A DNA stretch of 64,000 bases. Source: Botryllus schlosseri. Its lineage: Eukaryota. The stretch lies in NCBI GenBank assembly GCA_051294905.1, contig CM119372.1:34288001-34352000 (forward strand), given 5' to 3'. The translations under genes and the position numbers were made by a program. Each line of letters opens with the position of its first letter. Position 1 is the stretch's first letter. The notes below the pieces were generated by a model. It was not told the origin of the DNA, made no database searches, and saw nothing but the letters and a program-made list of their open reading frames with translations. Positions 1 through 36,632 of this stretch are shown here, in pieces.

Positions 1-2072
1 AAGGCTTCGCCCCCCAGGCCCCCTCGGCTAGTTCGTTTTTACCGCTACTTATCATCTATATTGGGTTTCCGTTTATTGAGTGAGCTTGTCTCGACTGACC
101 GCGCGAAGCGCGAATTTTTCTTATAATTCATGATTGAATCGGTCAATATGATCGAGAATTGCATATATATTGCTATCGATTTTTATCCTTTCGCTGCTCA
201 CGTAATCAGATTTACCGGTAGAGTGGAGTGAGGTGTGTTGGAAAAGTTAGGACCACTCAATAATAATTAAATATCTTCGGGCGTATACCTGTTGGCAGGA
301 ACGAAACAGCACTTCGTCAAGCCCCGCAAACAAACTAGGGTCTTGGGTTCCCATAGGGTGATAACCCGACCTTCCCCCATCACGTTGTTCTCTTTTGCCG
401 CGAAATTAGTTGTACTATTTAGTGAGCACGCGCCAGGCGCGAAAATTGTCAATAATTCATAATAAAATCTGTCAAGATCGGGAATTGCATATATATGCTA
501 TCAATTTCTTGTCCTCTCTGCTCGCGTTATCAGATTTGCCGGTAGAGCTGAGTGGGGTGTTTTGGAAACTGTAGGGCCCGTAAATAATAGGCTAATTAAA
601 CATCTTCAGGCGGACGGACCCGTTGGTATGACTTCGTTACATGATGTTATTTCGTGACCTCCGCTATATCAAAAATATATATAATAGCATAAATGTACTA
701 AACTAAAAGACGCACACGATTTCAAATTGGTATTTCTTCACTGGCATATAATATTTCTCTGCGGGATGGTATTTCTCTTGTGAGGTTCAGATTGCTAAGA
801 CAGGAACACTCGGCGTCGGTCATTTAGACGCCGATGGACAATAAACCTATACGTATCAGCATAAGCGCAGTTCTTTTCAGCCAAGGTTTTCTCGCTGCCG
901 ATCATTCTGACACATTTTTTGGAGTCGCATGTTGGTCTAAAACTTTATATCTTGGTGCGTCGCGGCGCGGTAATGGCCTACGCCGATATGGCCATTTCTA
1001 TAAATCTTGCGTATTTTTTCTTGGGTGAAGAGTACCCAATAATCAAGATATTTGACAACTTGATATCGCGCGGAGCACGAAATAATTTTGAAAAAGCTGC
1101 ATAAATTTTCAAAAAATACTTTATAATTTATGCTAATTCACGAAATAATTTTGGGCCCCCTTCGAGCCCGCATCCCCCCCATTGGGTTTTTTTTGTGCGG
1201 CAGTTACGGTCCTGGATGTACGCAATACAATACAGTTGATAAAACCGTCCATCCCTGCCTGTGGCGGAAACGTCAACAACGCGGTACCAATACCTATCAC
1301 CAGTAATCCAATAATAGCCTGTGCTTATGCCTGAAGACTTCAGGATGAAGTCTGGTGTTTCGTTCTTGAAAAATACTTGCTTTGGCTCCTTTGGCAGTAT
1401 GTCAAATAGTCGTGCTGTTGAGCGGTGTTATTTCGTCTATACATCCAGCGTATAATTCTAATATAATGTGTTGACGTAATTGAAGGCAAATACTAGGCAA
1501 CCAATATCACATCTAAAACCGCGGATTGCCTGTTCGCTGGAAGTTAACAAAACCGCAGACGTCTGCAAGCAGTCATCAAGCTGCTGAGTAATGACTCGAA
1601 ACCGAGAAACGCTCGAAATCCTAACCGAATACCAAAAGCACTCCCGAATCGAGCTGGACTCGGCCTTTGCTCCGTTGAGCGCGACTTGAGTTTGAGACAA
1701 AGACGTGTCTCTGAATAGGAGCCTTAAATGAGCTTCAGCTTTCTTAATTGCTGATAAATAAGCACATGTGACGATGAAACCAATAATGGCATTGTCTTAT
1801 ATCAAGGAATCTTTCAGTAGAATAGCTGCTAATTGATTTACCAAAAAGTCCATTGATAGAAAACTATTTCTAGAAAAGAAATTGGATCAGTTTAGCTGTC
1901 TGCGTTCAGATCCTATCATATAATCAGTGGAAAAACAATTAAAATTGTGTGAACATTTCCATCGTCGAGGCTGTGTGAAGGTCGCCTTTCCTTTTTGACC
2001 TAATTTAAAAGTTGTAAACAAGGGACACTGCTTGGAATTAATGACAAAATGCGAGGATGCTTGTCCTCAAAG

Positions 2073-2977
2073 CACTGTTGGGAAGACTCGGGTCATGACC
2101 TGACTCGAGTCATACTCGAGTCACCTTTTTCGTATGAATTGACTTGACTCGAGTCTCTTTGCTAAAATGACTTGACTTGACTCGGCGTATCAGAAATGTG
2201 GATTGACTCGTGACTCAGAGCAAAATTCACGAGTCAATTTCAAGTCATCAAGTAATCGGTGCCGATGAAAATCACTGTATCTTGCATATGTTCGGATTGT
2301 TCGCGAAAGGCTGGTGTAACCCGTGAAAGCGAACAATCATTCAATGATAGAGCGTTTCACCGTACCTTGGTTGTTCTCTCATAACTAAATTGACCGCAAA
2401 CGAAGTGATCGAAGCTTACAGCTTGTCATAGACTCTAGTAGTGAAGTAGTAAAATAGCAAAATGTCTATTTCTGTTCTCTGTTCTGTTGCCTGTACCAAA
2501 CCTCTTGTTTCATTGAAATTGAATTCGAATATAGTTGGTATTGTCCTCAAACATTAGCGCATGCTCGAATTGTCTCATATCTATTTGCAAATGAGTAATG
2601 TATTATAGCATCTTATCAATTCGCTTCACTATTCTTTATTTTGGCTGGTAACTATAAACTGAGGCTATGCAATTACTTGTAGTTTAACAGTTCTACGTAT
2701 ATGTGAGCAATACAACGCCTTCTTGCGTGTATATTATACTCTATATTCGTTCATCAGTTTGGAATCAATGACCACTCAATCTGTATTTCAGACAGCTAGC
2801 AAACTGCAATGACTTGAATTGAAATGTGACTTGACTCGAGTCACTTTCAAAAATCGAGTGACTTGACTTGACTCGAGTAACCTTTGGAAATCGATTGACT
2901 TGACTTGACTCGAGTTAAAATGTGCAATGACTCTAAATGACTCGTGACTCGAAGGTAGTGAATTGATTCCAACGCTG
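2073..2977. mobile_element. Non-autonomous hAT-like element with GACTCGAGTC/GACTT subterminal repeats
   Basis: TIR CACTGTTGGGA.../...TTCCAACGCTG. Dense TGACTCGAGTCA motifs at both ends. Flanks cctcaaag/atacaaag match only partly. Same family at 19855-20590 and a truncated end at ~26190. Confidence 0.75.
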
Positions 2978-3107
2978 ATACAAAGTAACGTCGTTTTTGC
3001 TGCAGTGTTCTGTTCATATAATACCAAATGTCCAAGAGTGCCGCAAAAGTTTTATCAATTTTCTAGTGCGTCACAAGTTGAAAAAGTTTAGGAACAACCG
3101 TCGTAGA

Positions 3108-3545
3108 GAGGGTGGGATTTAAAACAACTTGTTTTATAAAACACATCGATTAAAACATGTTTTAAACAGCTTTTTAAACAAAGGCCTTTAAAATTTTTTT
3201 TTTTTCAAGTTGTAAAGTCATGGCATAATTGTGTAAATACTTTCCAACAAACATGTTGTATGAGCCTACGGACAATTACCACCGGATATAGTCGAGGTAT
3301 ATCGATATGGGATTTTTGGAACCCGCAAAATAGTCGGTTAAACAGTTGTAGTGCAGATATTTCGTCAAAGGATCTATATTTACCCTATATTTTCAATTGT
3401 GAATGTTAATCCACTATGACGTCACAACTGAATATTCGTGACATCATTGCTCAAAAAAACTAAAACAAAAAAAATGTTGTAAATAAGGGTCTTGTTTTAG
3501 ACATGCTTGTTTTAAATTGATTTTTGATTTAAATGCAAAGTCATA
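3108..3545. repeat. Dispersed MITE-like repeat with TTTAAAACA-rich ends (related copies ~28275-28663 and ~33116-33685)
   Basis: Shared core such as 'tatatttaccctatattttcaattgt.aatgt.aatccac' at ~3375 and ~28520; inverted copy near 33250. Ends approximate. Confidence 0.6.
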
Positions 3546-5483
3546 GAGTCTGTAAATAGAGGTGTTCGAAAAAAAAATCTTTACTATTTTCTTTAGAGTT
3601 TACATGAAGTCCCATGCATTTTCATATATATATATTTATGAGTAAACTGGTTCAAAGGGAAGGTGTGCTTACCCAATGGGATGCTGCAACCAACAAGATA
3701 ACTCAGCACGATGACTGCCACCTGACAAAATGCGGCTCTCTGCTTCTTCTGCCTTTCCGTTGTTATTGCGAGACCTGCCAATTTTTACGCAATTAGTTAT
3801 AGTAGGTCTATATTACACTGTTACGTTTCTTAAAAGGTAATTTACAATACATAATAAAATCGCAGTATTTACAGAGGGAGCATGGAACTACCCAATTACT
3901 ATGTCTACGATAAATGAGATATTCGGGAATAGAATAGCTCAACGTGAAAGTAACATATGAGCAATTGAGCATTAATGGGACTATAGGAGTAGTGTTATGG
4001 GAATCGTTTGTTACCGTCCAATCACAGAAGGCCACGTCGCCTTAATTGCCACGCCTACATTGCCACATCATCCCCCATTGCCGCACCTATATGACGCCCA
4101 TTGCTACATCGTGTGTATTTATGAGCAAATTTCATTGTTTTGTGAATTTCAATACCGATTTTCCATGTGTATTTAGCAATATGTATTGAATAACTTGAAA
4201 TGTATCATCACTAATTAATTAATATGAAAAGCGATTTTGAGCGCTGCGACTTGAATATATTAATCCCTACGCTTCTGATGAATGATTTTATGTGATAAGG
4301 ACCTTGGTAACATTCAGATTCTGCAACGATTGTTTGGATATACATTTTAGCAATACCCCACTAAATTATAAGCGGTTATATTACTCTATTGGTCGGAGAT
4401 AACTCATCCGTCAATATTTTTAAACTTGATTTTATGAGTACAAGTTTCGGTTTCTGCGGTCTCCACATTTACGACTTATTTTGATTAGACGCAGGTTAGC
4501 GATTCTCAAGTTCGGAGCTATGGAAACAAATCAGTCGCATGTGCACGTTCCGAACTCGCAACAGCTTACTGAGCTTAGTAGCATATACGCGAATCCCAAG
4601 GCGAAAATAATCGAACGAACTATAGCCGCAGGCGCGCGAAGGGCTGTAATTATACAAACACTTTATCCGCATATACGCGAACCCTAGCGTTATAACGACA
4701 GGAAATAATTAGCGCGTTCTGAAGCCGTAAATTTAGTCAACTTCAATCAGATAGCCATGATTTAAAGATGGTAATATCTCCTAATGACTTTAATACTCTG
4801 AATTTTAAATTATCCACACCTATGAGTTAATACTTCTTTACTTAACAACTCCAAAGGTTAGCACAGTTTGTGGTATTTCGATTACCTGCTAATAAAATGT
4901 TGAAATGTAATGTACTTTTTTTCAGGGGTCTCGATGAATTGTACCAGTTTCATCTATTTCCTACAATGCATTTCGCTGTCCTGAATGACTTATCATCACC
5001 GTGAAAAAATAGTAAAAATATACCGAAAATTTGGGAAGTCCTACTATGCGATATTTGAGTTTTTCAATTTACATTTCGAAATTAGCCCAGTTGGATATCA
5101 ACGAAAACCACGTAAAATTTCACTCCAAACGTTATGGCTTTAACTCGAGCAAATACGTATTCCGAATTTTATGAGTGAAATAACCTTCCTTATGTCAAAT
5201 CTACATAGGGCAGAATAAATCGAAAAAACAATAAATGCGGAAGCCTAGGCATCGAGATATAGCTCGGCGTCACACCGCGGTCCAATAACGAGAGTGGAAT
5301 AATATAGAAATCATACCGAACCATTGTAAAAGTGACGTTTCTTAGTTTATGCATATAAAATTTCACATTGTAAAAGTTAATATTCAAGGTCCATTTTAGT
5401 TTAATACTGAAACTGTCTTGAATTTGAAACAGGCCTATATCATAAACACTTGAGTAGTTGGTGCATGTAGGCAAAAAAAACCA

Positions 5484-7218
5484 CTTGAGTACTTTGAAGA
5501 AATACATGTACTTCTCTGCTCAACATCTCTGAACGATAGAAGTGGAGAAATAGTCTACAAACATAACCAGTTACTCACTTACTTACTTACTTTGAAATCT
5601 GTACTTTTACTTGTATTCGAGCGGAATTGCGCGATGTTGAGTACCATCTGACGGCGTTTATCACACTGCTGGAAAATTAAGGTTCAGTACTCGAGTATCA
5701 AATTAGATTTACTTGAGTGAACGTGAGGAGTTATAATAAGTGATTCTACTAAAGTTTCCATGTGGCGCGGTGAGGGCCGCAGGATGGAGAAAAGATACTT
5801 TAGGAAAAATGGATACGATCGGTGGTACTAACGCCTCGGCTAACAAAGGATATTTCAAACACTTTTAGTAGTACTTAACAGTTTCAGTTTTAAATAAAAT
5901 TCGGAATATAAACTAATCGAAAAATTCGGTAACCAATTTCGCGTAGGCTATGCATACAAATGAGGAACGTTACATCAACGCGTGTTAACTAGTTGTATTA
6001 TGAAGCTTGTAATTCATGCAAGTAAGTCGGACAAATTCGTCGCATGAACACGACTCTAATGGACATAACGAAATGAAAATTTTGTAAAGTAGATATTTTT
6101 CGGTATGCTAAATTCGGCTACGCGGTGCTAGTCTTCTTGGCCGCATGAAATAGGATGTTTTAGCTTCAACCTCAACGCATAAGCACATCGAATTTAAATA
6201 TAGGCGATGAATAATATACAGTAGCTCCAATTTTAATGAAAAAATAAAAATAAAAATAAAAAAGCGCGAAAACTGCATTTATCCTGGAACGCACCAAGAA
6301 AAACCGTATGAATTTGTAAAGTAGTTAGAAAACTACACTATTCCGCTACACTAAAGACTTTGGCACTCCGGATTTTGTATAGTGTTTACTAATTTTACAT
6401 TGCGGAGTATTCAGTAAAGTTTAATCCAGTGATTCTCCATCTATTTTCAAACACGATCATCTTATTTGTCTAGGCTTCGAACCCCACACCCAGTACGTTT
6501 TATGGGGATTAATATTTTACTCAGCTATACCTTCCAATTCGGTTCCCGACACGATAACTTTCCTCCGTATGATCATTAAGGCTTCTATTTTTGTTGCAGG
6601 ATGGCTTTGTAGGATTCTTTAAATATCGCTTTCGACTACAATAACGTTTGGAAGGGACTCGTGTTTGTTGGAATCGGACTGACATCTATAGCAATGGCAT
6701 TATCAAGATAATGGATGTTCGCATGTTTTATCTCATGTAATATTTTAAGAATAAAATTCTTCATCGTTTAATCGCATCCATTTTACTGTAGGATGTATAC
6801 AGTTTCAGTATGAATGATGGGTCCTATGGTGCTTGACGAAAGAAGTTGGTCATCTATTCTATATTCCGAAATAATCAAGTTGGCGATTTTTTATCAGCAC
6901 CTAGCCTCATAGAAACTTTAGTCGAATCACTTATAACTCCTAAGTTTAGTCAAGTAAATCTAATTTGATACTCGATCACTGAACCTTAATTTTCCAGCAG
7001 TATGATAGACACCCTCAGATGGTACTCAACATCGTGCAATTCTGCTCGAATACAAGTACAAATAGAGATTTCAAAGTAAGTAAGTAAGTAACTGGTTATG
7101 TTTGTAGACTATAACTCGACTTCTATCGTTCAGAAAGGAAAGGACGTAGTTTATTTTTGTCCTTGATGTTTGAGATGTTGAGCAGAGAAGTACATGTACT
7201 TCTTTAAAGTACTCAAGT
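5484..7218. repeat. Internal ~290-bp inverted repeat pair (5484-5772 / ~6897-7218) within the arm; mirrored in the right arm
   Basis: For example 'ctgctggaaaattaaggttcagt' (~5666) versus 'actgaaccttaattttccagcag' (~6978). AGTACTCAAGT motifs resemble Tol2-type hAT subterminal repeats. Confidence 0.8.
6600..6711 (+). pseudogene. Captured terminal exon resembling Bcl-2/Mcl-1 family (end of BH2 plus C-terminal TM anchor), frameshifted; mirror copy 14398-14509 (-)
   Basis: Acceptor ttttgttgcag|GAT GGC TTT GTA GGA TTC TTT = DGFVGFF. Then in the +1 frame: NIAFDYNNVWKGLVFVGIGLTSIAMALSR*. AATAAA at ~6750. Confidence 0.55.
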
Positions 7219-8360
7219 TGGCTAAAATGCCAAGCTACCATGTAACTAAGGCTACTATTTGTCATAATAACTACTATGAGCGCACAATTAGCTTGTTCAA
7301 AATCTCCAAATTCCAGGGATTCACTGATTGAATTGATATATATTGAATTAAAATAATGCTGCATACGAAATTTGGTAGATGTGAACGCATTTTTATCAAA
7401 ATGTTCAAATTTCACTGACATCCTCTTGAAATTGTTACAGTGTCTAAAACAGAGATCTCAAACACGCGGCTCGCGAACCGCCAATTTAATAAACCGTCGA
7501 ACAATCAGGGTAGGAGACAAGATTTTTCCGTTCTATATCATGACAATACCAACAAACACCGTGCAAAGTTTCAAGGTTGTCATTCGATGATTAAGGAATT
7601 AAGAAAACTACTTCTACTAAACTTCTGGACTTTTATTAAACCTAAACACTGCATCTGATCAAGTATAGATAGAAAAGCAAAGCTAATATAAAATTTCACG
7701 AAGTCCCGATTCTGTAACTACTGTGAGTAGGCAAACGTTAGCTGAGTATACTCCGAAAAAACAGGAGTAATTCGTTACTCACCAAATAAATGGATAACAT
7801 TCAATATGAGCGGCGTTAGGATATCCGTCAAATACTTTCCGTTATTCTATAGAAGTTGCGTTTCTGACTACTTAAAAGTTGCTAGAGCTCATGCTGTTTT
7901 ATCGTCGTATTGATGTTCGTTTTGAAAAGTAGCATGCTCAATGGTTCATGTTCACATTATTCAGGTAAATTAGGTTTTGCGCAAAGAAAAATAAAATTCA
8001 CGCAAAAGTCGCTATTGCTCCGTCATGATTTTGATGTTGTTCCATACCGATTTGGGAGGTAGTTCACTTAATTTTGTGAAGTACGCAGAAAACTACTTCT
8101 ACTAAATTCCTACACTTCTAAACTTCTACACTGAATCTTGTAAAGTATATAGAAAAGGAACACTAACGAATAATTCATGAAGTTCCGATAGGCTATAGTT
8201 GAGGTAATGATTCCCGTGCGAATGAAAAGTAAGTAGAGAAGCTTAGTATATCAACGATATCGTTGCCAGTCATTGTGTCGATTCGCTGCTTGAAATCCTC
8301 CAGATCGATTGATGTTTCGAGGTTTCGTGGTTTCGCTTTGCTGTCATCCGTACGAGCAGA

Positions 8361-8612
8361 ATGTCTGGATTAGGAACAGCTACGCCAGGACCATTGATGC
8401 TTTCGATACAGTGCAATATGAATAGCGCTACGTTGATCAATTCAAATTCAACAATGGCTCCCGCGCACGATTATGTAGCCGGATTTTCGTTGAATATTGA
8501 CGACACCCACAAACCGAAAGATCTCTTTCCCCTTCACATCTATGATAGAGTTATCACTCCAATGACTACGAATAACTTGAGATTCCGTCGGATTAATATC
8601 CGAATCAAATAA
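8361..8612 (+). CDS. 83-aa ORF, possible remnant of a Polinton minor capsid (penton) C-terminus; mirror copy 12497-12748 (-)
   Basis: IQCN...IN...F.LN...PK.L..L....I..M...N.RF..INIRI loosely follows recalled Polinton penton C-terminal spacing. By eye only. Confidence 0.25.
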   Translation: MSGLGTATPGPLMLSIQCNMNSATLINSNSTMAPAHDYVAGFSLNIDDTHKPKDLFPLHIYDRVITPMTTNNLRFRRINIRIK

Positions 8613-9099
8613 TACCAGAGTATCTTTTCCAGCTTTTAAAACCCGCACTGTCGCGTTCAGCCTATGTCGCAACACCACAATATATGGCCATACAAAACGA
8701 TGAATAGTTGCTTTTTGTAGTACCATATCTGCGAGATATTTTCAGTTGGGTGTAATTTCACGCTGCTCACCAATTTACAGCTCACAGTGCAACTGAATTT
8801 GCGTCCATTCTAATTCTACATAATTTTTGCATGTCAGGCAATTACATCATCAGTAAAATGCCGGCGGCGACTCATTTAAAGCTTGTTAGTATCTGAGATA
8901 ATTGGCGCTCAAGCGTAGCATGGAATCGCTAATGATGTTTGTCGTATAATGTAAACTGTATATCATTATAAGAAAGATCAATGGGACTACGTCCCGAGTA
9001 AAAAAAAGACATTCACGAAGTTCCGATACACTATATCCTAATTTTTAAAAATTATTCCTCCTCTTGAGTCGAGACGTAGTTAAGTAAATAATTTTTATG

Positions 9100-9223
9100 T
9101 ATTAATCATTACCTATCTTCCGTAAACCAACAAAATACAACTAAGATCCTATTCCATTATTCCCGCACCACACTATGTAGGCGACCAGCCTGATTTGAAC
9201 ACTCTAATTTTTCCAAAGTAAAC
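9100..9223 (-). rRNA. Degenerate 18S rRNA fragment (left-arm copy)
   Basis: Reverse complement of 11886-12009. Confidence 0.8.
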
Positions 9224-9371
9224 ACTTAAGAAAATTTTATGTGGTTTTTAGATAATGTCCAAGATGTAGGCTCACTTTAAAGGGTAAATCGTAAAACTCA
9301 GATATTGCGCAGTGCGAGTTCGCAAATTCTTGAAGTATTTTTGTTATTTTTATTGCGATAAGTCATTCTGC

Positions 9372-10670
9372 AGTGCGAAAATGCGTCGTAGGATATAGAT
9401 GAAACTACCAACACTCATCAAGACCGCTGAAAACAGTACATTTCAACATTTAGTAGCAGTAAATTTCTAATAAAGTACAAGAAGTGATGATTTCCGAGTG
9501 AGTTAAAAAGTAAGTATTGCAGGTATAGTTTACCTGAAAACCGAATACTCTGAAATAGAAGTAGATGCAGTGTAAATAGTTAATCACTTGATTAAGTATA
9601 GTGCAAGCAGATAAAACCTATACTTGAGTACTACAAAATGCACGAGTACTTCGCTATCGACTCACTCCACGTAATAAGTGACTACGGTTTAAGACTTCTT
9701 TTACCGATACTCGTCAGTTTCAGTTTTAGATAGCATTCGGAAACCAAATAATTTCATAAACATAAGCTACTTAAATGAATTTACTCGAATGTACTATGCC
9801 GCGCTGATAAGATTAATTATAATATACTTATCATGTTACAGCGATTTTTCTAGCGTAGAAAATCTTTAAAATGTAGTAAGCAGGCCAATATGAAGATATT
9901 CGTTGAGCTTAATAAACATAAAAAATACTCTAGACTACTTTATCGGTACTTTACAGTTTCAGTTTTAGATACAATTTGTCCCTTTCACCTATAATTACAA
10001 CTCCTCGCTATCTAAACATGTTTAGAATATATTATTTGCGATGATACGAACCCGTAAAGTACTCAAGTAGCTTTTCGTAGGATATAGATGAAACTGACAC
10101 CGCTCACGAAGACCACTGGTCCACTGAAAAAAGTACATTGTAGCAGTAAAGTCCTACTAAAGTACAAGAAGTAATGATTTCCGAGTGAGGTAAAAAGTAA
10201 GTATTGAAGGTATAGTTTGGTCAAAACCTAAAAACTCTGAAATAGAAGTAGATGCAGTGTAAATAGTTAATCACTTCATTAAGTATAGCGCAAGCAGGCC
10301 AAACCTATACTTGAGTACTTCAAAATGTACAAGTACTTCGCTATGTTCTCCCTGCTCGTAAAAAGTGACTAGGTTTTAGAGTACTTTATCGGTACTTGAC
10401 AGTTTCAGTTTTAGATAAAATTTGGTAAGACTTTAAATTTTTTAAAGTAGTTTGAGCTTACGTTTGTATCACCTTGACAAGTAACATTATCAGACATGAA
10501 AATGATACTATCACCTAATACAGAAGTTAACACACGTCCATGTGCTTCTTAATTCACGAGAAATTGCTTACTAAGAGAAATGTATTCTTGTATAAACAAT
10601 AGTGGAGAGAATATTTAAAATGTAGTAAGCAGGCCGATGGGTATTCTTTGAGTTGTATAAGCATAAAAAA
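9372..10670. repeat. Diverged tandem duplication (~690-bp period) running from the left arm into the spacer
   Basis: 'ctctgaaatagaagtagatgcagtgtaaatagttaatcactt' occurs at ~9548 and ~10235; 'aaaatgtagtaagcaggcc' at ~9868 and ~10617. Confidence 0.85.
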
Positions 10671-10749
10671 CATTCCCGCGCGCGTGTCTTAGTATTAGGT
10701 GGTATAGGGTTAGGATGAATTAGGTTAAGGAGCGCGCGGGAATGTTTTT
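10666..10749. other. Perfect 18-bp hairpin with telomere-like loop at the palindrome turning point
   Basis: AAAAACATTCCCGCGCGC (10666-10683) pairs with GCGCGCGGGAATGTTTTT (10732-10749). Loop: gtgtcTTAGTaTTAGGtggtaTAGGGTTAGGatgaaTTAGGTTAAGGa. Confidence 0.9.
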
Positions 10750-11885
10750 ACGAGGAGGGAGAACATAGCGAAGTACTTGTACATTTTGAAGTACTCAAGT
10801 ATAGGTTTGGCCTGCTTGCGCTATACTTAATGAAGTGATTAACTGTTTACACTGCATCTACTTCTATTTCAGAGTTTTTAGGTTTTGACCAAACTATACC
10901 TTCAATACTTACTTTTTAACTCACTCGGAAATCATTACTTCTTGTACTTTAGTAGGACTTTACTGCTACAATGTACTTTTTTCAGTGGACCAGTGGTCTT
11001 GGTGAGCGGTGTCAGTTTCATCTATATCCTACGAAAAGCTACTTGAGTACTTTACGGGTTCGTATCATCGCAAATAATATATTCTAAACATGTTTAGATA
11101 GCGAGGAGTTGTAATTATAGGTGAAAGGGACAAATTGTATCTAAAACTGAAACTGTAAAGTACCGCTAAAGCAGTCTAGAGTATTTTTTATGTTTATTAA
11201 GCTCAACGAATATCTTCATATTGGCCTGCTTACTACATTTTAAAGATTTTCTACGCTAGAAAAATCGCTGTAACATGATAAGTATATTATAATTAATCTT
11301 ATCAGCGCGGCATAGTACATTCGAGTAAATTCATTTAAGTAGCTTATGTTTATGAAATTATTTGGTTTCCGAATGCTATCTAAAACTGAAACTGACGAGT
11401 ATCGGTAAAAGAAGTCTTAAACCGTAGTCACTTATTACGTGGAGTGAGTCGATAGCGAAGTACTCGTGCATTTTGTAGTACTCAAGTATAGGTTTTAGCT
11501 GCTTGCACTATACTTAATCAAGTGATTAACTATTTACACTGCATCTACTTCTATTTCAGAGTATTCGGTTTTCAGGTAAACTATACCTGCAATACTTACT
11601 TTTTAACTCACTCGGAAATCATCACTTCTTGTACTTTATTAGAAATTTACTGCTACTAAATGTTGAAATGTACTGATTTCAGCGGTCTTGATGAGTGTTG
11701 GTAGTTTCATCTATATCCTACGACGCATTTTCGCACTGCAGAATGACTTATCGCAATAAAAATAACAAAAATACTTCGAGAATTTGCGAACTCGCACTGC
11801 GCAATATCTGAGTTTTACGATTTACCCTTTAAAGTGAGCCTACATCTTGGACATTATCTAAAAACCACATAAAATTTTCTTAAGT

Positions 11886-12009
11886 GTTTACTTTGGAAAA
11901 ATTAGAGTGTTCAAATCAGGCTGGTCGCCTACATAGTGTGGTGCGGGAATAATGGAATAGGATCTTAGTTGTATTTTGTTGGTTTACGGAAGATAGGTAA
12001 TGATTAATA
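11886..12009 (+). rRNA. Degenerate 18S rRNA fragment (3' part of the V4 region)
   Basis: GTTTACTTTGGAAAAATTAGAGTGTTCAAATCAGGC...GGAATAATGGAATAGGA...TATTTTGTTGGTTT.CGGAA...GGTAATGATTAATA matches conserved eukaryotic 18S motifs in the right order. Confidence 0.8.
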
Positions 12010-15000
12010 CATAAAAATTATTTACTGAACTACGTCTCGACTCAAGAGGAGGAATAATTTTTAAAAATTAGGATATAGTGTATCGGAACGTCGTGAATGT
12101 CTTTTTTTTACTCGGGACGTAGTCCCATTGATCTTTATTATAATGATATACAGTTTACATTATACGACAAACATCATTAGCGATTCCATGCTACGCTTGA
12201 GCACAAATTATCTCAGATACTAACAAGCTTTAAATGAGTCGCCGCCGGCATTTTACTGATGATGTAATTGCCTGACATGCAAAAATTATGTAGAATTAGA
12301 ATGGACGCAAATTCAGTTGCACTGTGAGCTGTAAATTGGTGAGCAGCGTGAAATTACACCCAACTGAAAATATCTCGCAGATATGGTACTACAAAAAGCA
12401 ACTATTCATCGTTTTGTATGGCCACATATTGTGGTGTTGCGACATAGGCTGAACGCGACAGTGCGGGTTTTAAAAGCTGGAAAAGATACTCTGGTATTAT
12501 TTGATTCGGATATTAATTCGACGGAATCTCAAGTTATTCGTAGTCATTGGAGTGATAACTCTATCATAGATGTGAAGGGGAAAGAGATCTTTCGGTTTGT
12601 GGGTGTCGTCAATATTCAACGAAAATCCGGCTACATAATCGTGCGCGGGAGCCATTGTTGAATTTGAATTGATCAACGTAGCGCTATTCATATTGCACTG
12701 TATCGAAAGCATCAATGGTCCTGGCGTAGCTGTTCCTAATCCAGACATTCTGCTCGTACGGATGACAGCAAAGCGAAACCACGAAACCTCGAAACATCAA
12801 TCGATCTGGAGGATTTCAAGCAGCGAATCGACACAATGACTGGCAACGATATCGTTGATATACTAAGCTTCTCTACTTACTTTTCATTCGCACGGGAATC
12901 ATTACCTCAAATATAGCCTATCGGAACTTCATGAATTATTCGTTAGTGTTCCTTTTCTATATACTTTACAAGATTCAGTGTAGAAGTTTAGAAGTGTAGG
13001 AATTTAGTAGAAGTAGTTTTCTGCGTACTTCACAAAATTAAGTGAACTACCTCCCAAATCGGTATGGAACAACATCAAAATCATGACGGAGCAATAGCGA
13101 CTTTTGCGTGAATTTTATTTTTCTTTGCGCAAAACCTAATTTACCTGAATAATGTGAACATGAACCATTGAGCATGCTACTTTTCAAAACGAACATCAAT
13201 ACGACGATAAAACAGCATGAGCTCTAGCAACTTTTAAGTAGTCAGAAACGCAACTTCTATAGAATAACGGAAAGTATTTGACGGATATCCTAACGCCGCT
13301 CATATTGAATGTTATCCATTTATTTGGTGAGTAACGAATTACTCCTGTTTTTTCGGAGTATACTCAGCTAACGTTTGCCTACTCACAGTAGTTACAGAAT
13401 CGGGACTTCGTGAAATTTTATATTAGCTTTGCTTTTCTATCTATACTTGATCAGATGCAGTGTTTAGGTTTAATAAAAGTCCAGAAGTTTAGTAGAAGTA
13501 GTTTTCTTAATTCCTTAATCATCGAATGACAACCTTGAAACTTTGCACGGTGTTTGTTGGTATTGTCATGATATAGAACGGAAAAATCTTGTCTCCTACC
13601 CTGATTGTTCGACGGTTTATTAAATTGGCGGTTCGCGAGCCGCGTGTTTGAGATCTCTGTTTTAGACACTGTAACAATTTCAAGAGGTTGTCAGTGAAAT
13701 TTGAACATTTTGATAAAAATGCGTTCACATCTACCAAATTTCGTATGCAGCATTATTTTAATTCAATATATATCAATTCAATCAGTGAATCCCTGGAATT
13801 TGGAGATTTTGAACAAGCTAATTGTGCGCTCATAGTAGTTATTATGACAAATAGTAGCCTTAGTTACATGGTAGCTTGGCATTTTAGCCAACTTGAGTAC
13901 TTTAAAGAAGTACATGTACTTCTCTGCTCAACATCTCAAACATCAAGGACAAAAATAAACTACGTCCTTCCCTTTCTGAACGATAGAAGTCGAGTTATAG
14001 TCTACAAACATAACCAGTTACTTACTTACTTACTTTGAAATCTCTATTTGTACTTGTATTCGAGCAGAATTGCACGATGTTGAGTACCATCTGAGGGTGT
14101 CTATCATACTGCTGGAAAATTAAGGTTCAGTGCTCGAGTATCAAATTAGATTTACTTGACTAAACTTAGGAGTTATAAGTGATTCGACTAAAGTTTCTAT
14201 GAGGCTAGGTGCTGATAAAAAATCGCCAACTTGATTATTTCGGAATATAGAATAGATGACCAACTTCTTTCGTCGAGCACCATAGGACCCATCATTCATA
14301 CTGAAACTGTAAACATCCTACAGTAAAATGGATGCGATTAAACGATGAAGAATTTTATTCTTAAAATATTACATGAGATAAAACATGCGAACATCCATTA
14401 TCTTGATAATGCCATTGCTATAGATGTCAGTCCGATTCCAACAAACACGAGTCCCTTCCAAACGTTATTGTAGTCGAAAGCGATATTTAAAGAATCCTAC
14501 AAAGCCATCCTGCAACAAAAATAGAAGCCTTAATGATCATACGGAGGAAAGTTATCGTGTCGGGAACCGAATTGGAAGGTATAGCTGAGTAAAATATTAA
14601 TCCCCATAAAACGTACTGGGTGTGGGGTTCGAAGCCTAGACAAATAAGATGATCGTGTTTGAAAATAGATGGAGAATCACTGGATTAAACTTTACTGAAT
14701 ACTCCGCAATGTAAAATTAGTAAACACTATACAAAATCCGGAGTGCCAAAGTCTTTAGTGTAGCGGAATAGTGTAGTTTTCTAACTACTTTACAAATTCA
14801 TACGGTTTTTCTTGGTGCGTTCCAGGATAAATGCAGTTTTCGCGCTTTTTTATTTTTATTTTTATTTTTTCATTAAAATTGGAGCTACTGTATATTATTC
14901 ATCGCCTATATTTAAATTCGATGTGCTAATGCGTTGAGGTTGAAGCTAAAACATCCTATTTCATGCGGCCAAGAAGACTAGCACCGCGTAGCCGAATTTA

Positions 15001-18000
15001 GCATACCGAAAAATATCTACTTTACAAAATTTTCATTTCGTTATGTCCATTAGAGTCGTGTTCATGCGACGAATTTGTCCGACTTACTTGCATGAATTAC
15101 AAGCTTCATAATACAACTAGTTAACACGCGTTGATGTAACGTTCCTCATTTGTATGCATAGCCTACGCGAAATTGGTTACCGAATTTTTCGATTAGTTTA
15201 TATTCCGAATTTTATTTAAAACTGAAACTGTTAAGTACTACTAAAAGTGTTTGAAATATCCTTTGTTAGCCGAGGCGTTAGTACCACCGATCGTATCCAT
15301 TTTTCCTAAAGTATCTTTTCTCCATCCTGCGGCCCTCACCGCGCCACATGGAAACTTTAGTAGAATCACTTATTATAACTCCTCACGTTCACTCAAGTAA
15401 ATCTAATTTGATACTCGAGTACTGAACCTTAATTTTCCAGCAGTGTGATAAACGCCGTCAGATGGTACTCAACATCGCGCAATTCCGCTCGAATACAAGT
15501 AAAAGTACAGATTTCAAAGTAAGTAAGTAAGTGAGTAACTGGTTATGTTTGTAGACTATTTCTCCACTTCTATCGTTCAGAGATGTTGAGCAGAGAAGTA
15601 CATGTATTTCTTCAAAGTACTCAAGTGGTTTTTTTTGCCTACATGCACCAACTACTCAAGTGTTTATGATATAGGCCTGTTTCAAATTCAAGACAGTTTC
15701 AGTATTAAACAAAAATGGACCTTGAATATTAACTTTTACAATGTGAAATTTTATATGCATAAACTAAGAAACGTCACTTTTACAATGGTTCGGTATGATT
15801 TCTATATTATTCCACTCTCGTTATTGGACCGCGGTGTGACGCCGAGCTATATCTCGATGCCTAGGCTTCCGCATTTATTGTTTTTTCGATTTATTCTGCC
15901 CTATGTAGATTTGACATAAGGAAGGTTATTTCACTCATAAAATTCGGAATACGTATTTGCTCGAGTTAAAGCCATAACGTTTGGAGTGAAATTTTACGTG
16001 GTTTTCGTTGATATCCAACTGGGCTAATTTCGAAATGTAAATTGAAAAACTCAAATATCGCATAGTAGGACTTCCCAAATTTTCGGTATATTTTTACTAT
16101 TTCTTCACGGTGATGATAAGTCATTCAGGACAGCGAAATGCATTGTAGGAAATAGATGAAACTGGTACAATTCATCGAGACCCCTGAAAAAAAGTACATT
16201 ACATTTCAACATTTTATTAGCAGGTAATCGAAATACCACAAACTGTGCTAACCTTTGGAGTTGTTAAGTAAAGAAGTATTAACTCATAGGTGTGGATAAT
16301 TTAAAATACAGAGTATTAAAGTCATTAAGAGATATTACCATCTTTAAATCATGGCTATCTGATTGAAGTTGACTAAATTTACGGCTTCAGAACGCGCTAA
16401 TTAGTCCCTGTCGTTATAACGCTAGGGTTCGCGTATATGCGGATAAAGTGTTTGTATAATTACAGCCCTTCGCGCGCCTGCGGCTATAGTTCGTTCGATT
16501 ATTTTCGCCTTGGGATTCGCGTATATGCTACTAAGCTCAGTAAGCTGTTGCGAGTTCGGAACGTGCACATGCGACTGATTTGTTTCCATAGCTCCGAACT
16601 TGAGAATCGCTAACCTGCGTCTAATCAAAATAAGTCGTAAATGTGGAGACCGCAGAAACCGAAACTTGTACTCATAAAATCAAGTTTAAAAATATTGACG
16701 GATGAGTTATCTCCGACCAATAGAGTAATATAACCGCTTATAATTTAGTGGGGTATTGCTAAAATGTATATCCAAACAATCGTTGCAGAATCTGAATGTT
16801 ACCAAGGTCCTTATCACATAAAATCATTCATCAGAAGCGTAGGGATTAATATATTCAAGTCGCAGCGCTCAAAATCGCTTTTCATATTAATTAATTAGTG
16901 ATGATACATTTCAAGTTATTCAATACATATTGCTAAATACACATGGAAAATCGGTATTGAAATTCACAAAACAATGAAATTTGCTCATAAATACACACGA
17001 TGTAGCAATGGGCGTCATATAGGTGCGGCAATGGGGGATGATGTGGCAATGTAGGCGTGGCAATTAAGGCGACGTGGCCTTCTGCGATTGGACGGTAACA
17101 AACGATTCCCATAACACTACTTATAGGCTACTAAACAGACCTTGTACTTGATTCATCCTCCGTATATTATAACAAATGATGACTGAGCATACAACGATTC
17201 CCACAGTCGGTAAATGTATAAGAACAGGTGCCGTATACTTCATGTGGATCCTCTTCACTTCTTCCCTAAACACACCCGGAATTGTTTCAGATTGGCCTAC
17301 ACCACGTATAGTCAAGAAAATTCCTACCTATACGCAAATATGACGCAGTTCTAGCGATGTGATTAGGGAGCAAAGGCGCAAATTCCCCCAATATAGTCTC
17401 GATCTGGGCGTTATGACGACAATATTGTTTGCTATCTAACATTGCATTCGTGACGTCACGTAAATATTTCAAGAGTTTGGACCTAGCAATACATCTATAG
17501 TATAGGCCTGTGCCACATCCTGTGTCACATCCTGTGTCACATCCTATCACATCCTGTCATTGCCTCGATAGCAACCCACCAGCCACTATATCCATTCGAG
17601 CATATCCGAGTATTTCCACTTTCGTCAGTTTCAATCCCTGAGGTAAGCATGCGAACGACACCAATCGAAAGAATGCACTCAATCCAGAGCATCCAGGTCA
17701 GAAGCTAAATGATTACGAATAAGATCACGGTTCGTTACTGAACGAATACATAATGACATTAATAATAAATTCTTACTTGTGCTTTGTTCGGTGTAAATTT
17801 CGCTATGGTTTTGGGAAATTTGAATGCAGCCAGTCTGAAGATGCAGCAGCATAAAATATGGTGACATGTGCACATTTCGGTCACTGCAGCAAGGGTGTGA
17901 GTCAGCTGTGGAAATTTTATCACTATAGTTATCGTTGTACGGTATGGTTAATCAATGGAGAGTAGGAGTGTTCAAAAATATTTGTTTCTACAAATTTCAC

Positions 18001-19854
18001 TGGCTACTTGATCAAATTATTAGGTTGGCTAAAAAACTATGCACAACTAATTTGGTTCAATTCCAACCAGTAGCCGCATTGCTACAAGAGAAAAAAGATT
18101 TGAATTGATTGAATTTGATTCAATTTCAAACAGTAGAAGAGGAATTATAACAGTGTGAAAAATTTGGACAAGAATTAAATAATAACCTGGTCACTGTACT
18201 ATTTCATTCAAATCCAAATTCAATCAATGATTCACACACTACCAATACCTTGCAAACAACCTCCGGAAGTTGAAATACTTTGAGCCCAAGAGTCTTCCTA
18301 TACACAACGAACATGCTGTTCGATGCGGAGACGATGTCGCTGACGCAGAGGCTTATTAGAAGGCGGTTGAAAGCCGTGCTGTATGAATAAGAGATTGCAA
18401 TGTTGTCATGTCGTGATATTCTCACGTACGTTCGTTTATTATTATAGGCCTGTTTATATTCTCCTGTCATCCAATTATCAATCACAGGGTTGCGATACAA
18501 TGTAAAAAAAAAAGGTAAATCTGCCAGACAGATACCGGATTGCAATTAGCCAAAACGGAATTTGTTAATAAAGAGGAACGCGAAAATTGGAAAAAATTGG
18601 GAATAAATTGCAACGAATAGTAGTGTGTCGGTGCGAGATTTCCCATATGTCATATCATGATCCTATAATCTTGAAAGCAAGCCAGCATTTATTAGCTAGA
18701 ACCCGTTAGAAGGACTGCGACCCATACCCGAAGACACATGTTATAAGAACCAAGGGAATATTTTCTTCCGCTATTAGTTATATTGTATGTTGAAATTGTG
18801 CGACATTTATCTAAAGGGGTGGCTTCCTACATTTTATTCGTTATTATCAACTTCTGATTCATTCCGAGTCTTCAATCCCCGCAACCTAAATCCCCTACCC
18901 CCCTTAAAATGCCCCTACGAACCCACTATTGGTGAAAGTTAGGACTGCTCAGAATTCATAGTGACGACATGTGTAGAAAGAGACAATGATTGTGGCATTG
19001 CTCATAATTTTTCTCCACAAACGGGAATTTGATATCGAGATAACTATGGTCGTATTTTATATGATCCTGGGTATTTGCTCGAGTCATATGCCGCACGCTT
19101 CCTAAACCGAGCATTTTAAAAGATACAAAAACGTTGTGCTGTAACGTTAGGTCTGCCGAACGATGACCTAATGGGCGCCATGCTATTCGTTAGTGCTGGT
19201 AATGAACAGTGAACACAGATATTCGATTTCCTATTTGTTCATTCTAAATTATGTAACGACTTTATCGCTACATTTGTTAAAGTCAAAATATTCCCGTTCT
19301 TTACATTATTCAAAGTGCAATGTGCGATTATTTACAAAGAAATAACGGGCAGCCATAATGCCGAAATCTGTCTTTCCGAAACAATCAAGTCTTCCGAATG
19401 ACGGTCATATGAACAGAACACGAATGGTATTGAGTGTTTGCGGTTTGCCGAATATATTTGTCAGAATACCCACAGATTTTGTTCATCGTGTTCGTGATAA
19501 GATCGCGAGATCATAAAAAATGTTCGTCGATTTCCCGAATACCGAAGATTTCTATTCTTACGCAGAGCATGTTATAACCTCCGCAGCTCTTTCATTCTTT
19601 GAGTGCACCCAATGGTAGTGGTTGGCAATAGCCTTTTATTGCAACATAAAACCGCATGTTAATTTTCTGCAACAGCTTTATTGCACTTCATGCTACTCGT
19701 ACCAGAAGCGTTTGTGGTGACATTCGTGGTTATCATGAATTCAAAATGAGTTTTTCTGGATAACATGCGATAAAACTATCGGCTCATAGAGTCCAGAGCA
19801 TTGAACTGTTAACTGTAATCGCGATGTGTTGCACCTCCTTCAATATCTAGATAC

Positions 19855-20590
19855 CAGTGTTGGGATGACTCTAGTCAACTTTTACTGATGACTCGAGTCA
19901 CTTTGCAAAATTGACCTTTCAATTCCAGGTCAAGTAATCGTTGCCGACTAAGTCGCTGTACCTGAAGGTACATGCTCTCGACACGCTGATATGATCTGTG
20001 TGAGCAAGAAATCCTTCAACGACTTCGCAGTCTGGTTACCAGCCTCCGTCGATAAGTGACAAAAGAATTGACCGCAAACGTTGAGAAAGCAATGTCTTTC
20101 TGCCCAGTACCCTAGTATTCTTAACGAATCTCTTGCACAATTTAAATCGGACTGATGTATCAGTGGATACATATATATTACTAGTCAACAATTGTGTCGT
20201 ATCAATGTGTAGGAGGATTGTGCATTACATCACATCATTTCTTACAACTTTTTAAGGTTTCAAATTTTATCATCTATTTTGCGCACAGTTATCGACGTGG
20301 CGCATAGTGAGCCTACGATGCCCTATTGAGGGTGCAATTAACTTAATATTCGTAACTCGATTTGTAATAAATGGTAAATCGATCTGTACTTCAATCATCT
20401 TGCAAAATGTATTGGCTTAAATCATGCCTCGAACTTCGAATATTCGACATGTCTTTGTCACTTGAGTCGACTTGATTTGACTTGACTCGAGTCAACTGCA
20501 ACCATCGAGTGACTGGAATTGACTCCAGTCAGATGTGCAATGACTCTAATTGACATGTGACTCGAAGTTAGCGAGTTGATCCCAACACTG
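19855..20590. mobile_element. Non-autonomous hAT element (same family as 2073-2977)
   Basis: TIR CAGTGTTGGGAT/ATCCCAACACTG; 8-bp TSD CTAGATAC/CTATATAC. Confidence 0.85.
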
Positions 20591-32696: not shown

Positions 32697-35600
32697 AAGG
32701 AACGCACATAGCAAATCAATAAGTGTAAAATATATTTCATGTCCTTTGTCTACTTTTCCAGATTAGGGCACGTCATTACGATTAAGGTTGGAAAAATCGA
32801 GTGTCTGAGTGATTCGTTTCCGAATCGGGTATTATGATTCGAGTCGAATACTCGAGTATCACAGGGTATGACACCATAACAACGTGAAAGATGTGGAAAG
32901 ATCAAATATGTACCTTTTATGACTGGTATCGCAGTTATTGCCGGTTATCGTAGGCCCAGTCTTATCCTTTTCATGAAGTCCATAGATGTTCCAATACCAT
33001 TATCGCAGTATTGCACTCATTATATTTCCTGACTCGAAGCAAACTCGATTCATGCGAGCCCAGCACATCACGTCACCTTCAATATAGTATTTTTCTTCCA
33101 GATCTGCATTCAACCTAGTGTTGCATCTGAAACAAAATCAATTTAAAACAAACACGTTTAAAACAAGGGCCTTGTTTAAAACATGTTTTTTCTTTCTTTT
33201 TTTTCCACTTTTTTAGCCATGACGTCACGACTATTTAATAGTGACGTCACGGTGAATTAGCATTGACAATTAAAAATGCAGGGTAAATATGACTCCTTCG
33301 ACAAAAAGGGCTTCCGATCACTGTCATAAACAGATCAAAAATATATTTAACCAGGACTACATCGTTATGCAGCATTTTTACATTCGGCGGTCATCATCAT
33401 CAGAACACCCATTTCGTACCAATGATCTATATATACCTGCAAAAACTGTTGAACCGACAACAATTTCGAGGATTCCAGCCACCCCGCATCGTATACGTCG
33501 ACTATTATGGGTGCAAATCGTCCGTAGGCTTATACTACATGATTTTTCGGACGTATTTACGCAATTATGGCATAATTAGACAACGTTTAAAAAATGAAAA
33601 CAATTTTTGTTTCCAAAAAGGCATTTATTTAAAACACTGCTTAAACAAAGTGTTTTAAAACGCCGTTTGCTTTAAACCTTTTAAAATCTGATTCCGTATA
33701 CGGAATCGGTCAACTTCATCTGGCCCTATCTTTATTTATCTACGTCCTATAGGCTTCGTTTTTGTTTGTAGGGAAAGCTAACAATCTTCTGATTTATATG
33801 ATACCTAATTCGAAAGCATGAGGCATGACAATTTTCGAGCACCGACGATCTTACATAAGGAGCTCGGCCGAAAATACGCATGCAGAAAAAGTGGTTATCA
33901 CCAAAAATTTCCAGATATTTTCCGAGTGGGAAATCTAGTCAGGCATTCTGCCAGAACATCAGAAGTCGACTTGTACAGTGTTCTGTGTAATTTTTCACCG
34001 TTTCAAACATCAAAACTTGTTCTTAGTAGTATTCTGAAGGGGTTTGGTAATTTTGGTCACGCTTCGGTGATTTTCTAGAACATAGTTAAGTTCGTGACCG
34101 AATATGAGTCATAAACTGGTTTATTATGCCTGCAAATGGCTGGATACGACATGAGAAAGTATACCACGTTGTTTCATGCCATTAAGTGGGAGGTAGGGGT
34201 CCGATTCGGTATTGATCTTGAAGTTGACCATAGTGACCACTTACTGACCACGCCCATATGTAAATTTTTCATGTATTTTTGATTTTTTCGATAACTGGCG
34301 AGCGGCATGGTTTACGGCCATGGTTGCATGGTCACAACGAACTTTGAAAAGTGGCCCGCGACCCGTTTAGAGTTGGCGACCCCTGATCTAGCGTGATTCA
34401 GTTTTATCTCAATAATATCACTTATAATCAGGGTTGCCATACCGTCCTTATTTCTAAGATTTGTCCTTATTTTGAAGGCAAGGTCTTAGAAAATTCAACT
34501 GTCCTTTTTTCTAAGAAATGTCCTTGTTTTCGACGTGCGTCCTTATTTTGTCTTATTTTCAACAACGACAGAACTGCGATCGTTTTCCTCTGGTATCTGT
34601 GTTGCATAAAATTATGCTTTTGCGTCGAGATTTTATGACATCATAAATGAACGGAACTCTCGTGGCGTACACATAAGATGATTTGACTTCCAAGTGGTGA
34701 GATAGCTAGAGCAGTGAGTGGTATGACATTTTCAGCAGTAGCCTACCATCGCTATCGCAGCGTACGTCATTTTAGCAGAAACAGCAGCATAGGCGCCGAG
34801 TTGCGAGGTTACGTTCGCCACCTTGTCACTATATTTACAAGGTGGCGGCCACCTGTATAAAATGCTCAAACGCCCCCAGTAATTTGTAACTAGTAAAAAG
34901 TAATTAGGCGAATCCACGCGACCTCGTCAGAGACGTCGTTGATATAATCAGAAAACAGTTGTCGCGAGGCGAGAGTGGTATAGTAGATCGCTCGTGATTC
35001 GTACTTTTTTTGCATGGGCTCTTATGGGTGCGGTGGTGACTCGTATTGAAAACTCGTGTTGAACCGGTGACCCTTTTGACCCCCCTCCTTTCGCTCAACC
35101 GGTGCCTGGGCTGGTATAGGGCATCTCTCGCACGGTAACCCTTTTCGGTATAGGGATCGCTCAACCGGTGCCGCGTACTTTCAGACTGTCGTATCGTTCA
35201 ACCGGTGTCATTGCTTCCTATGGGCGCGCTCGTAACCTGTCTGTCATGTATTCTGACGGGATCTCTGGTGATTCACCGTGTGTTCTTATGGGTGTGGTCG
35301 TGAATCGTACTTTCGGGTACAGGCATCTGTCGAGGGGTGTTGAATATGTATCAGGTATATTGATCACGTGATTGGTCCTTAGTTAATGTGTATATCCCAA
35401 ATTATTATATATGACCGATTCGAGTTAATCCCAACGTTTGCGGTGATTGCGACTTCAATATATCGTTATTCTTATGGGTGCGGCGACACGGTAACGTAGC
35501 TGATATAGACGTGGTGACATGATAACGTTACAGGTATAGGGATCGCTCACACGGTTCTACATGAAGACGTCGTAGTTCAGTCGTGACAAATGACCCACCG

Positions 35601-36632
35601 CATTCTCTATTCCAGAGGTCTCAAACACGCGGCCCGCATGCGGCCCCCGACACTATTATGTGCGGCCCGCGACGGCATTTCGCATTTCGAAGTATTCGAA
35701 AATATTGAATTACCAATTTTTTTTAATCCTTGAACCTAAAAATCGGTCTAAAACTACTACAGAAGCCTGAAACTACTCATCAAACTTCACTAATACACCA
35801 ATTTCAAAAGTTACTACGCAGGGGAAGTTCAACTATTACGTGACATTACTTGTTTATGATGGTAAAACATGACCCGTTAATGATTCGTGACTGAAAATTG
35901 TGATTTGGAGTTGAGCGCGACCTTTTGTAGAATTACCCGAGCTCGGACTCGTCGCGTCAAACGTTACAATCGGATGGACTTGTGTCTCGGAATGCCGTGA
36001 CTTGGTACAACCACGGACGCAGCAAACTATGAAACTGGTATGAGAAATAGTAAAATATGAAAATGTCGTAGCTTGCGTTGCGTATCTTATTTATATATCT
36101 AAGCAGGTCGGTATGGCAACCGACATTGGCATTATGTTGCCCCTTTGCTGTATAGTTGGTTACATCCAGTGTCATCTTTGGGTATCTTTATATATGTTAT
36201 TATTGCCAATTAAATGCGGCGAGTATTAACTAATAGTCGTAGCCTACGCTCCCCAGCTGTAACACCAATGGATTCTTCGGCGATTGCACATTTCTATTGC
36301 TATGGAACAGCTTTTATTATGTTCAAGTTGTTATTTATCTGTTCCAATATTCGAAGGTAAATCTAACGCTGAATCTATTTTACTTTGGTAATGACATGAT
36401 TAATATAGCCTAGTTATCAGGAGTAGGCCTATGCCCAAAACCCGGATTAGGCTGTACTGTTCCAACGCTCTGATATCAGATCAATCTCTGTAAAATTAAT
36501 AAATTCTACCTATAATTGTGAAACATCAAATGTCCACTAGCTGCAAAATGATCACGCGACAGCCTTTACGGCGTCATGATGCATTTGAACTTTCGCATGG
36601 TGTCTACAACTAATTATTTTGACAAACTATGC

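Follow-up and report, generated by a model that had tools for sequence, protein, structure and literature searches.

Introduction

In intact vertebrate Polintons (Mavericks), which are 12.7-24.6 kb long, seven or eight core genes lie between inverted repeats of 46-1,447 bp (Barreat and Katzourakis 2021, PMC8097293). The end repeats of Polintons suit protein priming, and replication has been proposed to proceed via a single strand with paired inverted repeats (PMC8097293, PMC4046053). An insert upstream of gh1 in Chinook salmon is a palindrome of about 10 kb assigned to the Polinton-1 transposon (PMC2584663), and butterfly polintons have ~2-kb gene-bearing inverted repeats, with two gene copies per insertion (bioRxiv 10.1101/2025.02.07.637071). 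Snapback subgenomes of adeno-associated virus (AAV) are self-complementary, closed by a hairpin and helper-dependent (PMC8235507). In this study, we analyzed a 64,000-nucleotide stretch of the Botryllus schlosseri genome (contig CM119372.1, positions 34,288,001 to 34,352,000; hereafter the window), in which a palindromic element with Polinton-type ends occupies positions 3988 to 17121. The element is one of well over a hundred mosaic, hairpin-shaped Polinton-ended elements without Polinton core genes. The locus is real, young and not unique, and belongs to a gene-carrying palindromic satellite family of Polintons.

Results

Structure of the element

The element starts with AGTAGT at 3988, finishes with ACTACT at 17121 and spans 13,134 bp. 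Alignment of the element with itself gave a single ungapped inverted match (3988-10364 versus 17121-10745) of 6,377 bp at 99.53% identity, the two arms making up 97.1% of the element. The arms differ by 30 substitutions scattered lengthwise (12 transitions, 4024/17085 among these) and by no insertion or deletion, and the middle between them (10365-10744, 380 bp) is unpaired. TATAGG flanks the element on both sides as an exact 6-bp target-site duplication, and at the terminus AGTAGT is followed by 24 variable bases (3994-4017) and then by CCAATC. These results agreed with a sequence-only reading of the stretch in coordinates, termini, duplication and indel-free arms, with symmetry far above chance, and the sequence of both termini upheld its description of Polinton-type ends with a 6-bp duplication. 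The features of an autonomous Polinton/Maverick that we found in the element were the 6-bp duplication and the (AGT)2//(ACT)2-type ends with terminal inverted repeats.

The longest stop-to-stop frame within the element is 128 aa, and no protein-primed polymerase B (pPolB) or rve integrase was found in it. A Pfam scan of its 55 frames of at least 40 aa gave no relevant match, the sole trace of a capsid, ATPase or protease module in the element was an 86-88-bp piece of a capsid gene, and Rfam returned 0 matches over window positions 1-20000. The earlier claim of no long open reading frame (ORF) therefore holds for length, but a conserved 92-codon gene is present in each arm.

The central stem-loop is the symmetry axis

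The last 74 bp of the unpaired middle (10671-10744) contain a 13-bp GC-rich stem that closes an unpaired 48-nt loop, G/T-rich on one strand. Several relatives keep their symmetry over 0.3-2.2 kb, reaching the central stem itself, and the right arm of the present element lacks the mirror of 10365-10670 (306 bp adjoining the centre), the break sitting between two 5-base A/T runs. What had been described as a 380-bp spacer is real as an unpaired middle, but is in fact a 74-bp central hairpin plus a 306-bp deletion from one arm. A pattern built on this centre matched 261 sites genome-wide, compared with 0 for a control pattern. The central hairpin was not found in three gene-coding Polintons with the same ends (the helpers described below) or in six other gene-coding Polinton loci sampled. 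A second palindrome family, with different terminal bases, has an equal build around another GC-clamped, strand-biased loop. Loop orientation ("flip/flop") was dropped as a signal because either orientation is trivial in a symmetric insertion. The loci L058-L060 and L061-L063 have two centres each, with 100%-identical direct repeats of at least 1,054 and at least 3,666 bp, and may be recent multimers or assembly duplications.

The element belongs to a large family

We searched the genome for the exact terminus pattern (AGTAGT, 24 bases, CCAATCMMA) and obtained 185 forward and 184 reverse sites, compared with 5 and 1 for controls. The terminal 213 bp of the element had at least 47 genome matches, mostly in inverted pairs 11-17 kb apart, a lower bound with 40 of 651 candidates scored. 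Most of the fetched loci had multi-kilobase inverted arms at an identity of about 99% or higher. Among 26 satellite loci with both ends, the target duplication was exact over 6 bp in 22, had one or two mismatches in 3 and was absent in 1, in line with the expectation of the sequence-only reading that further copies would show differing 6-bp duplications; overall, 25 of 29 elements had an exact one. Two features of a non-autonomous Polinton derivative, or satellite, are present: ends in common with a gene-coding partner, and many independent insertions with different duplications.

The lengths of 21 measured loci, picked partly by size, ranged from 11.0 to 17.0 kb (median 15.3). A less biased measure, the shorter terminus-to-centre distance in 21 pairs on contigs C1 and C2, gave a median half-length of 7.0 kb. 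The 32 terminus pairs on these contigs (a tally that includes one terminus, one centre and one polymerase position added from direct locus analyses) comprised 21 that enclose a centre, 5 that enclose a polymerase without a centre and 6 that enclose neither. A third palindrome family (two loci checked) has other ends, and at one of its loci 1.1 kb from the end of its own helper is retained at 95%. Two palindrome families distinguished by ends of their own are represented by L104-L107, with the 92-codon gene and a Bcl-2-like region, and by L110-L111, which match the most distant Polinton group, L111 keeping one of its end genes.

Gene-coding Polintons with the same ends

A 1,310-aa ORF sits in a Polinton nested within one satellite arm. 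From its motifs and gene context we take it to be a family-B polymerase, a call that Pfam did not make. Used as a query, it gave at least 76 genome matches in several identity groups (75 of 288 candidates scored), and a Pfam DNA_pol_B_2 profile search of the genome gave 0 of 9 candidates; because the protein query yielded 76 matches, the DNA_pol_B_2 model is insensitive here. The polymerase group at about 64% identity lies 5.6 kb inside pairs with the satellite's terminus pattern. Three such helper loci measure 17.5-17.7 kb, have short inverted repeats and lie between exact duplications. They code for an A32-type ATPase (E 8e-9), an rve integrase with a chromodomain (E 4e-13), a product with a weak double-jelly-roll match (E 0.011) and a BIR-domain protein, and have a polymerase-like ORF that is ~1,294 aa long and, in one of the three copies, split. 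They supply the autonomous partner with the same ends for which the sequence-only reading had proposed to look.

Comparison of the element with the helper showed that ~326 of the 6,757 bp of the half-element match, in four scattered, non-colinear pieces: the terminal ~125 bp (92.7% over 124 bp), the 86-88-bp capsid-gene piece, and pieces of 80 and 35 bp. The element therefore has a partner in the genome, yet its arm does not copy the end of that helper. One satellite and one helper carry an identical 24-base terminal variant, and helper pieces of 35-200 bp at 92-100% are present in many satellite arms. No terminal or internal match to the arm was found inside the other gene-coding elements sampled. 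As the element has no integrase or polymerase, both would have to come in trans, as the earlier reading had supposed for the integrase; from the common ends and the lack of genes, mobilisation by helper proteins appears probable. Two gene-coding Polintons are inserted inside satellites with their own 6-bp duplications (L042:5886 to L043:8838; L081:5928 to L083:5966).

Arms are mosaic between copies and mirrored within a copy

When the half-element was compared with 24 other halves, each of these individually accounted for 3-36% of its length, and 72% was matched in one or more of them; this 25-half set leaves out L031, a half with a retroelement insertion. A 2.35-kb block (6582-8933) is common, at about 96.5%, to all six relatives fetched by a match to the small gene, while other parts differ, and in some relatives it is interrupted by tandem units or inserts. 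Within the block, 54 private changes are present in both arms versus 10 differences between arms (4 derived in the left, 6 in the right), as expected if the arms were copied from one template, which the sequence-only reading had proposed. In three relatives, the private changes in both arms and in one arm numbered 17/5, 8/5 and 4/26.

Comparison of the 24 variable terminal bases at the two ends of the same element showed no difference in 24 of 29 elements, a single-base difference in 4 and unlike ends in 1; between elements, the mean difference was 13.4. A four-gamete test on these bases gave four sets, in 2 of 6 block pairs, lending weak support to reshuffling. The piece at 7133-7171 matched loose ends with poly(T) in RNA run X23 and many DNA contigs with varied flanks, suggesting a captured fragment. 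Inside the satellite arms, the halves of L021/L041, L033 and L046 contain short frames that resemble leucine-rich-repeat exons and a choline-transporter-like piece.

Cargo genes

The frame of the 92-codon ORF is kept across clades at 55-70% identity, and comparison with the nearest other clade gave a ratio of nonsynonymous to synonymous substitution (dN/dS) of 0.35-0.38 and a third-position excess. The ORF had at least 150 genome matches, mostly in inverted pairs, and was present in 13 of 25 satellite halves and in 0 of 19 helper stretches. The encoded protein had only 6 close relatives among 287 candidates. A search of 1.84 billion representatives gave one real cluster; five further matches were to long repeat proteins and were judged spurious. 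Nothing was found for it among PDB sequences. A model from a 28-sequence alignment is predicted to be all-beta, with a predicted local distance difference test (pLDDT) score of 81; an earlier model (10 sequences, pLDDT 39) was discarded. Foldseek gave no match to the model at E<=0.001 (best E 0.03). The best structural match, a weak one, was to small heat-shock/CS domains (VIA Z 4.8, root-mean-square deviation 3.6, 64 aligned), and 5 of 28 family members had a weak Pfam CS match, so that a kinship with small heat-shock/CS proteins is a lead only.

Relatives of the element also encode a Bcl-2 protein with a Pfam Bcl-2 domain (E 6e-22), an intron after GGW and a hydrophobic tail. Intact exon 1, followed by the intron and the tail exon, was present in 10 of 25 satellite halves, and Bcl-2 had at least 150 matches in the genome; the element at 3988-17121 retains exon 2 only, frameshifted. 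In the most diverged satellite pairs, dN/dS was 0.20-0.26. The substitution ratios thus indicate that both the 92-codon ORF and Bcl-2 are under purifying selection. The junction between exons 1 and 2 is covered by five reads of RNA run X24. A search for homologues of exon 1 found no match at E<=1e-10 among 7 candidates, and an intronless relative (69-71%) is present in another Polinton lineage. Gene-coding Polintons carry a BIR (inhibitor-of-apoptosis) protein (L052:1258-1890) or Bcl-2 with a ubiquitin-conjugating enzyme (L042:6127-6630 and 7123-7602).

Reads at the locus

An X1 contig, which may be from the source sample, covers 3522-4017 without differences and extends 30 letters inside the element, one below the bridging threshold. 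In X5, from another study, a 689-bp contig tracks the flank to exactly 3987 and then departs, as an empty site would, and the insertion site therefore looks empty in that sample. Modules of the element are also present in runs of other studies. Among the indexed runs, no RNA run was listed as containing the element.

Feature coordinates and other repeats in the window

Table 1. Features of the palindromic element, in window coordinates
Feature	Position	Strand	Basis
Left target-site duplication TATAGG	3982..3987	+	Repeat of flank; X5 contig departs from the reference exactly at 3987
Left arm, 6,377 bp, mosaic of family modules	3988..10364	+	Inverted alignment; comparison with other halves
Polinton-type terminus common with the 17.6-kb gene-coding family	3988..4110	+	Mirror 16999-17121; 92.7% over 124 bp to helper end
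86-88-bp piece of the helper's capsid-like gene	5771..5858	+	Mirror 15251-15338; 94-95% to three helper copies
2.35-kb block common to relatives	6582..8933	+	About 96.5% to six relatives chosen by small-gene match
Bcl-2 exon 2 remnant (membrane-anchor tail)	6600..6711	+	Mirror 14398-14509; frameshifted, without exon 1
39-bp piece matching the 3' end of an abundant polyadenylated RNA/repeat	7133..7171	-	RNA run X23; DNA contigs
Two short helper-matching pieces, 80 and 35 bp, 84-89%	8245..8385	+	Match near the helper's left end
92-codon orphan gene, predicted all-beta protein	8448..8726	-	Frame conservation; dN/dS 0.35-0.38
Arm stretch without partner, mirror deleted from right arm	10365..10670	+	Comparison with symmetric relatives
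Central stem-loop, symmetry axis of the family	10671..10744	.	13-bp GC stem; 48-nt G/T-rich loop; TTAGG-like words
Right arm, 6,377 bp	10745..17121	-	Inverted alignment
Mirror of the 92-codon gene	12383..12661	+	2 amino-acid differences
Right target-site duplication TATAGG	17122..17127	+	Repeat of flank

Elsewhere in the window, an older, degraded palindrome of a different Polinton-ended family lies at ~35001-48755, with inverted pieces at 35001-35612/48041-48743 and 38174-38782/47426-48048 (94-97%); its right end, AGTAGTATAGTAG, is at 48755, and its left end was not found. An inverted pair at 39796-41686 and 49193-52112 (88-92%) holds a ~198-bp tandem unit and is probably another repeat family. 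At 54743-58374 (minus strand), ORFs of 1,056 and 179 aa lie between 175-bp direct repeats at 54492 and 58854, and their motifs resemble those of a long terminal repeat retrotransposon.

Discussion

Favoured reading and proposed mechanism

We consider the following reading probable: an abundant palindromic family, with ends in common with a gene-coding Polinton of the same genome, gave rise to this young chromosomal insertion, which likely depends on the polymerase and integrase of that Polinton and likely replicates via a self-complementary hairpin. To our knowledge, replication of Polintons via a single-stranded panhandle is a model without direct proof in animals. In the mechanism that we propose, helper pPolB would prime at AGTAGT and displace one strand, which would pair with itself from end to end. 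The resulting ~6.7-kb duplex would have a single open origin and be closed by a loop on the other side, and therefore no second priming site would be needed. Copying round the loop would restore a duplex of ~13.4 kb, identical at both ends, for insertion by the helper integrase. Broken or recombined molecules would refold at the central stem, and the second arm would be rewritten from the first; captured fragments and mutations would be found in both arms, and copies would be mosaic yet mirrored, because of this rewriting. Once inserted, the arms would drift apart independently. It is a matter of speculation that the satellite is packaged in helper capsids and, equally, that the cargo genes (Bcl-2, small beta protein) aid survival of the producing cell.

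We tentatively extend this to a broader proposal, which is possible but which we hold with well under even confidence: that animal Polintons host standing satellite replicons, with self-complementary genomes of ~15 kb, a protein-primed end and a closed, conserved hairpin, which recombine freely, capture DNA and maintain genes of their own by selection (an orphan beta protein and a spliced Bcl-2), use helper capsids for packaging and arose in parallel from several Polinton lineages in one genome. If true, polintoviruses would have endogenous satellite viruses in these replicons, which would also provide a fossil record of a fold-back replication intermediate.

Several observations weigh against the favoured reading. 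On contigs C1 and C2, 22 of 44 centres sit outside exact-pattern terminus pairs, and one-arm insertions or deletions are common among copies. One of three relatives has the opposite ratio of both-arm to one-arm changes (4/26), which age can explain, and conversion after insertion likewise. The label of the helper polymerase rests on family-B motifs and gene context, and DNA_pol_B_2 found nothing. No read or contig was found spanning the whole element, nor was the satellite seen in extrachromosomal form, as a hairpin intermediate or in a virion. The arms have a low RNA depth, from both strands, dN/dS of Bcl-2 between close copies is 0.32-0.82, and the spliced Bcl-2 reads are not assignable to a satellite copy versus a look-alike host gene.

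Alternative explanations

The main rival is a foldback-type transposon moved as double-stranded DNA by Polinton integrase alone, its arms homogenised by chromosomal gene conversion without hairpin replication. Modular arms with internal tandem units resemble foldback elements, one relative has more one-arm than both-arm changes, and conversion could also mirror mutations. This explanation is nevertheless unlikely, as it leaves unexplained the conserved central stem-loop at 261 sites and the parallel one in a second family, the median half-length of 7.0 kb, and terminal bases that are reshuffled and common with helpers; moreover, one-arm insertions and deletions persist unconverted.

The sequence-only reading had proposed a one-off copy-back (defective-interfering) genome, in which a helper end was copied on itself and inserted. 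The element is self-complementary along its length, as a copy-back or snap-back genome would be, has its ends and duplication in common with the helper, and contains short helper pieces in the arm, but its arm is not colinear with one parent end: matches to the helper cover about 5% of the half, as pieces out of colinear order. The centre is absent from all gene-coding loci sampled, there are hundreds of copies, and the arm genes are under purifying selection, one of them without a helper match. For this copy, the explanation is largely refuted, and we regard it as highly improbable. The route may have founded families; in a different palindrome family of this genome, 1.1 kb from the end of its own helper is retained at 95%, and copy-back is therefore a fair origin story there.

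We give very little credence to a host-beneficial element, in which the host would retain the palindrome for the hairpin RNA or small RNAs that it supplies against Polintons, with helper pieces as guides. Such pieces at 92-100% in many arms, two Polinton insertions inside family members and low two-strand RNA would suit it; the site, however, looks empty in another sample, the arms carry protein genes under selection, and helper pieces are a small share of the arm. An assembly artefact, a fold-back chimera of long reads, is barely credible, for although no spanning read was seen and two two-centre loci with 100%-identical direct repeats are possibly assembler duplications, the exact duplication lies on unrelated flanks, derived changes fall on both arms, one arm has a deletion, the same build recurs at dozens of loci, and modules are found in runs of other studies.

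Significance and comparison with known systems

An all-panhandle family that outnumbers the helper sharing its ends and is mirrored in each copy leads to sharp predictions that can be put to the test: closed-end duplexes of half length, ends capped with protein, and co-packaging. The family also shows how intron-bearing host-type genes such as Bcl-2 are multiplied and come to be shared with virus-like elements. With copies of 11-17 kb, its long inverted repeats add up to megabases in this genome, a load that bears on genome stability, on assembly and on the annotation of repeats.

Kapitonov and Jurka (2006) or Repbase reportedly described non-autonomous Polintons, possibly with a large palindrome from zebrafish among them; if this is right, the palindromic shape itself is already known. 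Our literature search, with the founding 2006 work and Repbase outside its scope, found no description of such a palindromic Polinton family, which does not establish absence from print. Foldback elements (Drosophila FB, Galileo) have cut-and-paste transposases and other duplication lengths, and are not known to have ends of the protein-priming type or a fixed central hairpin; they are like the present element in their long modular inverted arms and little coding. Self-complementary parvovirus genomes are a comparable closed-hairpin, helper-dependent form.

In sum, the element fits a non-autonomous Polinton derivative, and neither an autonomous Polinton nor a classical copy-back genome. It is like the (AGT)2//(ACT)2 Polintons/Mavericks in its end motif, its 6-bp duplication and its near size range, but unlike them in having repeats of 6.4 kb and no core gene (PMC8097293). 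The Chinook salmon gh1 insert is likewise a palindromic Polinton, but the available text of that report mentions a single insert briefly, without analysis of a family, helper, centre or cargo (PMC2584663). Butterfly polintons likewise have repeats extended over genes, which are the core genes of gene-coding elements (bioRxiv 10.1101/2025.02.07.637071), whereas here the whole element is repeat, without core genes. AAV snapback subgenomes (PMC8235507) and parvovirus forms are pieces of their parent, made afresh, whereas the elements described here are a heritable, integrating family with mostly non-helper content and genes of its own.

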